From Dictyostelium discoideum (taxonomy: Eukaryota), in contig CH709157.1 in the NCBI GenBank assembly GCA_000004695.1, positions 1-3,947 on the forward strand: a stretch of DNA of 3,947 nt. The letters are read 5' to 3'. The notes under the pieces are model-generated. The model made no database searches, had not been told where the DNA came from, and saw only the letters and a program-made list of their open reading frames with translations. Below, piece by piece: positions 1,810-3,947 of this stretch. Made by a program: the position numbers and the translations under genes. Each line of letters opens with the position of its first letter. Position 1 is the first letter of the stretch.

Positions 1810-1890
1810 TTAAAAATAAAATTTATTTAATATAATTTAATTTTATAATTTAATTTATATAATTTAATTATATAATTTAATTTAATTTAG
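1810..1890. repeat. Pure A/T low-complexity tract built from ataatttaatt / tataatttaatt-like units
   Basis: No G or C between about 1813 and 1887. The taatttaatt motif recurs at least six times. Confidence 0.7.
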
Positions 1891-1907
1891 TAAGTATTAA
1901 TATATGT

Positions 1908-2093
1908 AACTGCTATTCCACTAATATATTTTTATTGTGGTGTCTTTATATTTTTTAATTGATAATAAATATTATCTTAAATTATTTCAATTATAACAAT
2001 GCATCAAAATAACTGTTATTCCACTAATAATTTATATTGTGGTGTCTTTATTTAACTGTTATTACACTAATAATTTATATTGTGGTGTTTTTG
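1908..2093. repeat. Three copies of a ~43-bp direct repeat (aactgYtattMcactaataWtttatattgtggtgtYttt). Copies 2 and 3 are tandem with a 43-bp period. Each copy holds a short internal hairpin (ccactaata / tattgtgg)
   Basis: Copy 1 at 1908-1949, copy 2 at 2011-2053, copy 3 at 2054-2093. A partial fourth copy, actgttattcctctaat, lies at 2266-2282. Confidence 0.7.
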
Positions 2094-2417
2094 TATTTGA
2101 GCATTATTATTAAATTAATTGATACAATCTTGTTTTATATTACTTTATAAAAGATGCATGTTTTCAATGTGAGTAGGAAGTGTCGTTGTACCGCCTAAGC
2201 AGTACAGCGTTAATTTTGCAAACAGAAAGGCCATTGTAATGCATTTTTATTTTGTTTTAAATACTACTGTTATTCCTCTAATCTGAAGAGTCGACTTCTT
2301 CATCATTAGGTGTCGTTGTATACGAAATATAAGGATTGTATCTAATTATTTGTTTTAATTTATTTGTTTAATGTTAAAATTAAAAAAAAAAGTGTAAATG
2401 TCACTCACACTAATCTT

Positions 2418-2494
2418 CAATCCATTGTCACTATTGTTCAATCTTTAATCGAACTAGTCCAATCTTTAATCGAACTAGTCCAATCTTTAATCAA
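2418..2494. repeat. 21-bp tandem repeat caatctttaatcgaactagtc: two exact copies, one truncated, one degenerate leading copy
   Basis: Degenerate copy caatccattgtcactattgtt at 2418-2438, exact copies at 2439-2459 and 2460-2480, truncated copy caatctttaatcaa at 2481-2494. Confidence 0.75.
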
Positions 2495-2808
2495 ATGTCA
2501 TTATTTAATTAATTCTACATGAAGGATAGAAAGAGTGAAAGGCTAATATCATAAAAGTAAACATACATAAAACAGATAATTAAAAGGTCGCTATGAAACT
2601 AAACCCAAAATCAGAATTTTTATTAATTTTAATATTTTTAAAATTTTAATTTAATTTAATTAAATTTAATAATTTATTTTTCGACTGAAAAAATAAAAAA
2701 ATAAAAAATTAAAAAATAAAAATTAAATGAAATATTTTTACATGGATGCGTGAATTTGTTATGTACTTGAGCTCATACTAACATTAAATTAATTTAGTTT
2801 TGAGTCTC

Positions 2809-3114
2809 TTACATCAGGTGTTTGTACTGACCAATTAAGGTATCGGATAATTGATAATCGGTTGGAACATCGAAATTGTTACTTGATTCATCTTCACTTT
2901 GTTCATTCTCGGTGTCAGAGATATCATGAGAAGGTTGGCTACGTGAATTGGTATTAGATGAGAACATAGGTTCTTTCATGAATCTTGTAAAGACTAGGGA
3001 AAGGTTGTTGATTTGATCCTCCATTGACTTCATTCTTAAATCAAAGGATTCAGCGCTATTATAGGCAGAGGTACTACTACTAGAGGCATCATTATTATTA
3101 ACAGTGGTAGACAT
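2809..3114 (-). CDS. Hypothetical 101-aa Ser/Asn-rich acidic protein
   Basis: ATG at 3112-3114 in the context taaaatATGtct, with an in-frame TAA two codons upstream, so the start is bounded. Product: MSTTVNNNDASSSSTSAYNSAESFDLRMKSMEDQINNLSLVFTRFMKEPMFSSNTNSRSQPSHDISDTENEQSEDESSNNFDVPTDYQLSDTLIGQYKHLM, stop TAA at 2809-2811. Base composition is distinctly less AT-rich than both flanks. No homologue was recognised. Confidence 0.45.
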   Translation of the reverse strand: MSTTVNNNDASSSSTSAYNSAESFDLRMKSMEDQINNLSLVFTRFMKEPMFSSNTNSRSQPSHDISDTENEQSEDESSNNFDVPTDYQLSDTLIGQYKHLM

Positions 3115-3235
3115 ATTTTATTGTTGATATCTAAAATTATAATATGAGAAAAATAATAATATTAAAAATTAATAAAGAGAAATAATTATTTGTATAAAAT
3201 TTGTGTGTGTGTGTATCTTAAATATATATAGGAGG
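3115..3235 (-). promoter_or_regulatory. Putative promoter region of the 2809-3114 ORF: A/T-rich leader, TATA-like atatatata (3222-3230), (TG)6 (3202-3214)
   Basis: The TATA-like run lies about 110 bp upstream of the ATG on the coding strand. The composition is typical of amoeba 5' flanks. No transcript evidence. Confidence 0.3.
3202..3214. repeat. (TG)6 dinucleotide repeat
   Basis: tgtgtgtgtgtgt read directly. Confidence 0.85.
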
Positions 3236-3333
3236 AATTCCCAAATAAAATAAATCAAATTGTTTTAGTTTTTAGTGCCACTATTTATACGTTTTTATTT
3301 TCTTAAAAATTTCGCAAAATCAAAAAAATAAGA

Positions 3334-3437
3334 GTTTTCGACCCTTCACAACTTTGTGCATAGTGTCGGTTCGGAATTTTTCAGTTTTTCGACCTTGCGC
3401 AATGATCGCGTCATTGTGCCGGTTCGAAATTTTTTAC
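3334..3437. repeat. Two degenerate ~50-bp tandem units, each ending in a B-box-like ggttcgRaatttt motif; a third, more degenerate ttcgaaaatttttt unit follows
   Basis: Unit A at 3334-3383: gttttcgacccttcacaactttgtgcatagtgtcggttcggaatttttca. Unit B at 3384-3437: gtttttcgaccttgcgcaatgatcgcgtcattgtgccggttcgaaattttttac. Identity is roughly 70-75%. Unit B contains a small hairpin caatga-tcgcg-tcattg (3399-3416). Confidence 0.55.
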
Positions 3438-3464
3438 TTTTCTTTCGAAAATTTTTTATTCTTC

Positions 3465-3482
3465 GAATGTTCTAGAACATTC
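3465..3482. promoter_or_regulatory. Canonical heat-shock element: four contiguous perfect alternating nGAAn/nTTCn pentamers inside a perfect 18-bp palindrome
   Basis: cGAAt gTTCt aGAAc aTTCt, i.e. gaatgttctagaacattc, which is self-complementary about the central ctag. The overlapping ttcgaatgttctag matches the classical CTnGAAnnTTCnAG consensus at 12 of 14 positions. A weaker fifth pentamer follows (taaaaa). Confidence 0.7.
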
Positions 3483-3536
3483 TAAAAAATTATCTTAAAT
3501 ATTTGGGAAATTCAAATAAATAAATGTTATTCATAA

Positions 3537-3551
3537 TATATATATATATAT
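3537..3551. repeat. (TA)7.5 microsatellite marking the 3' truncation point of the RT fragment
   Basis: tatatatatatatat read directly. On the minus strand it translates as …YHIYIYI…, i.e. non-RT sequence straight after the RPVLDL motif. Confidence 0.85.
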
Positions 3552-3558
3552 GATAATA

Positions 3559-3933
3559 TAAATCGAGAACTGGACGATGTAGATTCGTTCCAGGTTTTGG
3601 AACCGTAAACACGTTGGAGTAAAAAACGCGCTTTGAATAACGGTTTGGAAGTACTTGTTCGATGGCATCGTCTAATAACAAGTCTTGTACTTCCTTTGTG
3701 ATGCAATCTGATTTCGGACCCTCTGGAATTGAAATCGGAATTGGGTTTAGCATCGGCTTGAAGTTTGGAAGCAGATGGACTTTTAATCCATTTACGACCT
3801 CTTGACAAAAGTTTGGAAGACCCAATTCTTTCCAAACTTGTTTGTGGTGGAACAGACGTCCACCTACTGGTAAGTTTACTTCTTGTTCTTCTGAAAACGG
3901 TTGTTGGTACCGTTGGCAGACTTGGTATTGTTG
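3559..3933 (-). pseudogene. Truncated reverse-transcriptase N-terminal fragment of a second retroelement (DIRS-like or retrovirus-like RT; DIRS-1 if the host is Dictyostelium)
   Basis: Minus-strand frame, TAG at 3934-3936 then open: QQYQVCQRYQQPFSEEQEVNLPVGGRLFHHKQVWKELGLPNFCQEVVNGLKVHLLPNFKPMLNPIPISIPEGPKSDCITKEVQDLLLDDAIEQVLPNRYSKRVFYSNVFTVPKPGTNLHRPVLDL. The GGRLxxFxxxW…G…P segment followed by F-VPK-(K/P)-G…RPV-DL is the conserved entry to RT domain 1. Compare retroviral VKKPGTNDYRPVQDLR and DIRS-type F.VPK..G..RPV.nL, both recalled from memory. Homology stops at the (TA)n run. The track ORFs 3490..3825 and 3527..3835 are this frame and an overlapping spurious frame. Confidence 0.6.
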
Positions 3934-3947
3934 CTACCCCTGATGCA

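Follow-up and report, generated by a model that had tools for sequence, protein, structure and literature searches.

A three-deep nest of Skipper-1 and two DIRS-1 copies in a Dictyostelium discoideum contig, with a junction that looks like canonical DIRS integration at ATT

The window analysed here, which is the whole stretch of 3,947 nucleotides of Dictyostelium discoideum contig CH709157.1, very probably contains a nest of retrotransposons three deep: Skipper-1 lies within one copy of DIRS-1 (copy B), which in turn lies within another (copy A). The identity of the three pieces was established here, that of Skipper-1 by architecture and genomic context, and observed directly were the exact terminus of copy B, the ATT trinucleotide (ATTTA in full) that this terminus has in common with its target, and the identical orientation of copies A and B. 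The junction between A and B looks like canonical DIRS integration. The features of the window are collected in Table 1.

Table 1. Coordinates of the features identified in the window
Feature	Start	End	Strand	Basis and remarks
Skipper-1 leader, degenerate gag, protease ORF	1	2381	-	gag ATG at 1797; protease from ~830 down to 1, DTGS motif; runs off contig end in 12-bp tandem repeat
Polypyrimidine tract	2382	2392	-	CTTTTTTTTTT (minus strand); directly after LTR, at the Skipper position of polypyrimidine instead of PBS
Skipper-1 5' LTR	2393	2813	-	TGT...ACA, 421 bp including 2.6-copy 21-bp tandem repeat at 2439-2492; cuts copy B
DIRS-1 copy B, 5' leader and first ~100 ORF1 codons	2816	3234	-	ATG at 3114, MSTTVNNNDASSSS...; truncated at ~element nt 748
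DIRS-1 copy B, left ITR	3235	3563	-	~329 bp; primer match and identity to other ITRs; (TA)n run 3537-3551 in outer tip
Palindromic heat-shock-element-like motif	3465	3482	.	GAATGTTCTAGAACATTC; within ITR; perfect, four alternating GAA/TTC units
Junction overlap ATTTA	3559	3563	-	common to RT target and left-ITR start; ATT at 3561-3563
DIRS-1 copy A, internal fragment	3564	3947	-	~nt 1380-1761 of 4807-bp reference copy; runs off contig end
DIRS-1 copy A, ORF1 (GAG) tail	3876	3947	-	frame 3, last 23 codons, ending ...GSNNTKSANGTNNRFQKNKK, stop codon 3876-3878; by comparison with L001 ORF1 C-terminus

Translated from 3945, the minus strand reads ...PVGGRLFHHKQVWKELGLPNF...FTVPKPGTNLHRPVLDL and then YYHIYIYIMNN... 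(in full QQYQVCQRYQQPFSEEQEVNLPVGGRLFHHKQVWKELGLPNFCQEVVNGLKVHLLPNFKPMLNPIPISIPEGPKSDCITKEVQDLLLDDAIEQVLPNRYSKRVFYSNVFTVPKPGTNLHRPVLDL, onward as YYHIYIYIMNNIYLFEFPKYLR to a stop). Both of the reverse transcriptase (RT) motif blocks claimed in a first-pass annotation of this DNA, GGRL and F-VPK-PGT, are present in it, and the (TA)n run is correctly placed there at 3537-3551. The same annotation had coding stop at this run and the fragment begin at 3553, and neither point stands: the frame happens to stay open until a stop at 3490, and homology to RT ends at 3559-3563, which is neither 3553 nor the TA run. At its other side the fragment is limited by position 3947, the end of the contig and no biological boundary. 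In a protein search the 125-aa RT fragment matched 48 Dictyostelium proteins (best E = 3e-70), several of which extend into Pfam RVT_1, so that the RT origin holds when the best protein matches are checked. The window is rich in A+T, and both of its longest coding stretches, the RT-like one and the protease, match Dictyostelium proteins only. In an intact relative, P0018, RVT_1 starts exactly at FTVPKPG (E = 4.7e-23), and the protein continues past the end of the fragment as ...PVLDLKRLNTYINNQSFKMEG...YLDDLLIVG. The RVT_1 content of the window is confined to the first 17 residues, the remaining ~110 residues being an N-terminal extension of the RT ORF; since no more of the domain than this lies inside the window, the 147-aa RT fragment alone gave no Pfam match. 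A LINE or retroviral RT was considered as the source of the fragment and rejected; Skipper was also rejected as its source, as the Skipper RT box (RVVHEYRQLN) differs. The earlier reading of the fragment as the N-terminus of a DIRS-type RT is borne out by its identity with DIRS-1 and by the RVT_1 domain in its relatives.

Judged by its sequence, copy A is DIRS-1, a tyrosine-recombinase retrotransposon. It is 96-98.5% identical (blastn) to the RT regions of four other loci, L001, L002, L004 and L005; window 3559-3947 is 96% identical to the L001 element, and the shared ATT extends the correspondence to element nt 1764. RT relatives that are 96-98% identical in DNA extend into RVT_1 (E = 3e-27) and carry the YLDD motif, and the F-VPK...RPV-DL opening box lies inside the window. 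The intact DIRS-1 in L001 (from D. cf. discoideum) occupies 14221-19027 and is 4807 bp long, the published length being 4814 bp with an 88-bp ICR of 33 + 55 nt (PMC7192593). It has three overlapping ORFs: ORF1 (335 aa) begins MSTTVNNN...; ORF2 (642 aa) matches RVT_1, RNase H and a Dam-like methyltransferase (E = 2e-11); and the C-terminus of ORF3 (1025 aa) matches Phage_integrase (E = 5e-10), this catalytic domain lying outside the window. By comparison with this element, the copy A fragment has coding sequence in each of the three minus-strand frames. Frame 1 is the N-terminus of ORF2 (RT), ending ...FTVPKPGTNLHRPVLDL; frame 2, which has no stop over the whole of 3564-3946, carries the N-part of the recombinase ORF (ORF3); and frame 3 is the tail of ORF1. 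Of these the first-pass annotation had seen the RT frame and neither of the other two. The catalytic RT, RNase H, methyltransferase, ICR and right ITR regions of DIRS-1 fall outside the window. The ICR of L001 is found near 18577-18660, upstream of the right repeat, where first the left tip and then the right tip are present as their complements. Its left half agrees with window 3530-3563 at 34/34 positions, and left-ITR sequence bounds the L001 element on either side, in inverted orientation. The L004 sequence P0002 was considered as an empty-site allele or orthologue of copy A and rejected; it is 98.6% identical and yet is a separate copy with its own internal deletion.

On the other side of the break lies the left terminus of copy B. 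The published primer 'DIRS-1 lLTR fw', TTTATATTATCATATATATATATATATTATG (S1 table of PMC4482531), matches 3562-3532 on the minus strand with 0 mismatches, and the repeat as a whole is 90-94% identical to the ITRs in all loci, so that when the sequence next to the RT fragment is examined for terminal repeats it is the left ITR of a second DIRS-1, at 3563-3235, that is found. The inner end of this ITR is an EcoRI site, GAATTC (3235-3240). The inner-end left-LTR primer DM_133 had no match in the window at 3 mismatches or fewer; its first 16 nt (GAATTCCCAAATAAAA) match 3235-3250 by eye, and beyond that copy B has the right-LTR-like TAAATCAAATTGTTTTAG. The heat-shock-element-like palindrome occurs once, where 0.01 matches would be expected by chance; DIRS-1 ITRs are said to carry a heat-shock promoter, reportedly described by Zuker et al. 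in 1984. From its tip copy B can be followed in one contiguous 750-nt alignment of window 2819-3563 to L001 14957-14221, which covers DIRS-1 nt 1-737 (left ITR, leader and start of ORF1), and the intact L001 ORF1 begins with the same MSTTVNNNDASSSS as that of copy B. The ORF1 start (101 aa) gave no Pfam match, because the DIRS-1 GAG has no Pfam family.

At the junction (blastn), the match to RT extends to 3559 and that to the terminal repeat sets in at 3563. The intact RT target around this position reads CCAGTTCTAG ATT TAAAAAGG, with CTAG before the ATT, and the left ITR starts ATT TATATTATCATATATA... (ATT TATATTATC...); across the junction the minus strand of the window reads CCAGTTCTCG ATT TATATTATCATATATA... 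(CTCG ATT TATATTATC). An ATT stands at the junction position in the uninterrupted target, and copies A and B have the same orientation. ATT is the trinucleotide that starts and ends DIRS-1 and that forms the circle junction. The TA run is a part of the left-ITR tip and of the ICR, and it was proposed that the RT fragment is cut exactly at this run; it is rather an intrinsic part of the inserted tip, and neither the cause nor the site of the break. The proposal of a nested-insertion junction fares better, as the left terminus of a second DIRS-1 abuts the break. In the model for DIRS elements a circular element and an identical trinucleotide in the target recombine without duplication (PMC3266345; PMC7192593), and ATT was the commonest trinucleotide in a survey of the DIRS order (PMC3266345). 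The left junction of copy B agrees with this terminus rule on the one side that can be seen, the right junction being outside the window: the expected right-hand sequence (...AAATTTTTA ATT TAAAAAGGTTAAAC, also ...AAATTAAATTTTTA ATT TAAAAAGGTTAAACAC) is absent from the window and from the 12 loci. An exact-match scan of a metagenome collection for the junction sequence found none. The same junction is also present in L010, a 2.5-Mb contig of another assembly. A separate junction in L001 (14180-14224) has a more complex structure than would follow from the simple ATT rule; here a 19-nt inverted fragment of the right-ITR tip (TTAAAAATTTAATTTATTA) lies between the left end of the intact DIRS-1 and an interrupted DIRS-1 ORF1.

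The likely course of events would be as follows. The resident copy A would have been broken by copy B within the opening codons of its RT domain, at ~element nt 1762. A circular double-stranded DIRS-1 cDNA would have closed at an ATT circle junction, with the ICR as template, and the tyrosine recombinase of the element would then have joined this circle to the identical ATT in the target with no target-site duplication. Skipper-1 would later have interrupted copy B in ORF1. Here we infer both the agents, that is the recombinase and the circular intermediate, and the order of events. Copy B (2989-3563) differs by ~5% from its nearest sampled relatives, and copy A (3564-3947) by ~2-3% (2.6%) from its own, so that B looks older than A; this opposes the naive expectation that B is the younger, if weakly, as a non-coding ITR is here compared with coding sequence.

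Junctions of this kind were surveyed in 12 DIRS-rich loci (238 kb, including the window) by mapping the flanks of genuine ITR tips to the DIRS-1 reference. Only tips with the full ITR behind them were counted; looser patterns mostly added false tips, an example being the internal TATGTTATCAT at DIRS-1 nt 969. In the first sample, 4 of the 8 DIRS-in-DIRS junctions with a mapped target sit on ATT, compared to 0.033 expected per position (binomial P = 7e-5), while targets at reference nt 794, 3315 and 4283 break the ATT rule. A G precedes the ATT in 7/12 left-tip flanks (P = 0.002). The target used in the window and that of a right-tip junction in L001 have in common the 12-mer TTCTAG-ATT-TAA (TTCTAGATTTAA), of which the 4.8-kb reference has exactly two copies, at nt 1756 (+) and nt 2165 (-). 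The first of these sites (window 3559-3570) bears the left-tip junctions of the window and of L010, at 16064-16068 (-). The second bears a left-tip junction in L005, at 16653 (+), and the right-tip junction in L001, at 10589 (-); in L005 this site reads TTGCAG ATT, and among copies it is polymorphic, often TTCCAG. Breakpoints of DIRS/DIRS rearrangements also fall on the ATTs of these sites, in L012 at 19134 (-) and in L008 at 7750 (+).

It is possible, as a tentative reading of these sequences that has somewhat less than an even chance of being right, that DIRS-1 carries its own preferred integration site, the 12-mer within the RT gene acting as an extended target of the recombinase. The sample is small, and several of the junctions lie elsewhere or go against the ATT rule. 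By the account of PMC2665215, DIRS-1 has no defined target sequence (the early papers of 1984/85 are outside the literature covered), and the specificity of the DIRS-1 recombinase is described as uninvestigated (PMC7192593). The weight of the first site depends on whether its two left-tip junctions are separate events. The junction sequence is identical in the window and L010, and centromeric regions do duplicate (PMC2665215), so that the two could represent one ancient insertion spread by segmental duplication, which would leave the identity of the window unaffected and yet weaken the hot-spot lead. This is rather unlikely, since the window and L010 composites have 1 and 0 non-consensus substitutions in common, compared to 10/24 and 29/4 that are private, a 14-nt deletion is private to L010, and the break in copy B lies at ~nt 748 in the window and at ~nt 575 in L010; because of these three differences the two look independent. 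If a hot spot of this kind exists, it would give a sequence-level explanation for the preference of DIRS-1 for insertion into DIRS-1, known for 40 years, and hence for the building of centromeric clusters. The recurrent 12-mer target might be the only new part of this analysis.

Primary integration is not the only way in which the A/B junction could have arisen. A chromosomal rearrangement could have come about by site-specific or illegitimate recombination between two resident DIRS-1 copies, in which the left-end ATT of B was joined to its counterpart at RT nt 1762 of A, and joins between DIRS-1 copies without an ITR tip are indeed seen at such sites: the L012 rearrangement (-19134) connects RT nt 1764 to inverted nt ~2801 at an ATT, and that in L008 (+7750) connects the second site to nt ~1870. 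Recombination between residents would also remove the age paradox of a copy B that appears older than copy A. A single junction is unable to separate the two readings, and yet the one in the window has the exact form of a primary integration, with a full left tip and the same orientation, and primary integration into DIRS-1 is a documented behaviour (PMC5633606; PMC5006619); recombination between residents is therefore considered unlikely here. A mis-join, in which unrelated DIRS-1 reads were put together by the assembler or in a chimeric clone, is possible in principle for a small, unplaced and wholly repetitive contig from a repeat-rich region, where the junction is ~385 nt from the end. It is very improbable, however, because the two sides share 5 nt only, which leaves no repeat overlap for an assembler, because the break is exactly on the first base of the DIRS-1 terminus and on the target ATT, and because the independent long contig L010 has the same type of junction. 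An internal deletion within one DIRS-1 copy, which the first-pass annotation offered as the alternative to nesting and for which other copies provide precedents (that in L004 lacks ~140 nt of RT right after ...NLHRP and that in L005 lacks most of the left ITR), is for practical purposes excluded because RT nt ~1764 is followed, in the same orientation, by element nt 1 to ~748, which is upstream of RT in the element.

The preferred nest of Skipper-1 in copy B in copy A also rests on what interrupts copy B. The repeat that begins at 2813 starts TGTAAGAGACTCAAAAC... and ends ...TTTACA at 2393, and in L003 the same LTR sequence is found directly after the polypurine tract that follows an integrase-chromodomain ORF, which matches Integrase_H2C2, rve, SH3_Tf2-1 and, weakly and below threshold, Chromo. 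The LTR of Skipper-1 is 390 bp long and is followed by a polypyrimidine tract in place of the PBS (PMC5006619); the LTR of the window is longer because of its 21-bp tandem duplication. The window gag has several stops and frameshifts and is too degenerate to display the CX2CX4HX4C knuckle that is present in P0050 among the Skipper relatives. In the protease ORF the DTGS is present and Pfam matches are below threshold; its relatives extend into an RT of the gypsy type (RVVHEYRQLN…YFDDLLV) and an integrase (rve), and P0051 (DDB_G0294228) is this ORF itself, at 100% identity. The left part of the window fits Skipper-1 by architecture and genomic context. DGLT-A, which has a single ORF and lies near tRNA genes, and Skipper-2, of which there are 8 degenerate copies near tRNA genes (PMC5006619), fit worse on both counts; scans of the window for tRNA genes and Rfam families found none. 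It is clear, as had been proposed, that the protease ORF and the RT fragment come from different families, the former being assigned to Skipper-1, a Ty3/gypsy chromovirus, and the latter to DIRS-1.

All three pieces can be set beside known systems. DIRS-1 (Tdd-1) of D. discoideum is the founding tyrosine-recombinase retrotransposon, reportedly described by Cappello et al. in 1985. The overlap of ORF1, ORF2 and ORF3, the exact left-ITR tip and the ATT terminus of this element (reviewed in PMC5633606 and PMC7192593) match the copies in the window, as do its insertion into another DIRS-1 and its association with Skipper; there is no difference in kind, both window copies being truncated and non-functional. 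The left 2.8 kb matches Skipper-1 in LTR size, TG..CA ends, a polypyrimidine tract for the PBS, and a gag with a separate protease ORF, and differs in its degenerate gag and in an LTR of 421 bp rather than 390 bp. Skipper-1 is itself a Ty3/gypsy chromovirus of D. discoideum (PMC5006619), reportedly described by Leng et al. in 1998. Set beside the DIRS order in general (DIRS1-like, Ngaro, PAT, VIPER), DIRS-1 starts and ends with ATT, the trinucleotide most often found in the survey of that order (Piednoel et al. 2011, PMC3266345), has ATT in its target and needs no duplication. The 3-bp circle-junction integration model for the order is reportedly due to Goodwin & Poulter; whereas the published rule involves 3 bp, 5 nt (ATTTA) are shared in the window and the site lies in a recurrent breakpoint 12-mer. 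As an analogy only, in the bacteriophage lambda attP x attB reaction a circle likewise joins its target via a short identical core that sets the orientation. Unlike lambda, DIRS-1 has many targets and a mechanism that is not reconstituted, and to our knowledge it has no arm sites or accessory factors.

The centromeres of D. discoideum consist of nested fragments of DIRS, DDT and Skipper (49% DIRS, 10% Skipper), and most centromeric copies are fragmented by later insertions (PMC2665215). The DIRS/Skipper composition of the window fits this description, in agreement with the earlier suggestion of a retroelement-nested region as found around Dictyostelium centromeres, and the nest is an already known kind of structure, ordinary for these centromeres. 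No coding piece in the window is functional. The gene model DDB_G0294234 (P0005; 3480-3947, minus strand) has the RT N-terminus (...EQVLPN) spliced to QCSRTFEE, which is read from the heat-shock-like palindrome inside the copy B ITR; it is chimeric, part RT fragment and part ITR. The practical value is one of annotation: both AX4 gene models on the contig, DDB_G0294234 and DDB_G0294228, are artefacts that derive from transposon debris. Furthermore, the ATT integration rule of tyrosine-recombinase retrotransposons is cleanly exemplified by the junction, whose empty site is known, and together with the recurrent 12-mer the junction suggests a testable sequence basis for self-targeting by DIRS-1.

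Several repeats and rearrangements were also seen in the Skipper sequences. The contig starts (1-34) with 2.8 copies of a 12-bp unit, TATGATATTATG, translated as (NIIH)n within the Skipper ORF; about two such units are present in other Skipper copies (P0056: GNIIHNIIIKK), and this array may be the reason that the assembly stopped there. The leader contains three copies of a ~43-bp unit (AACTGTTATTCCACTAATAATTTATATTGTGGTGTCTTTAT) at 1908-2096, and the 21-bp tandem repeat of the LTR (2439-2492) is perfect. When L001 5563-6577 is compared with window 1816-2793, the leader segment (window 1816-2362) is inverted in L001 relative to the LTR and gag. An inversion in the window itself was considered and rejected, since two L003 Skipper copies are collinear with the window and the inversion is therefore peculiar to L001; it could be related to the Skipper-derived hairpin of PMC5633606. 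In L003 (15966-20777) an integrase-chromodomain ORF, a polypurine tract and one LTR are followed directly by leader, gag and protease, in what look like tandem Skipper copies with one common LTR.
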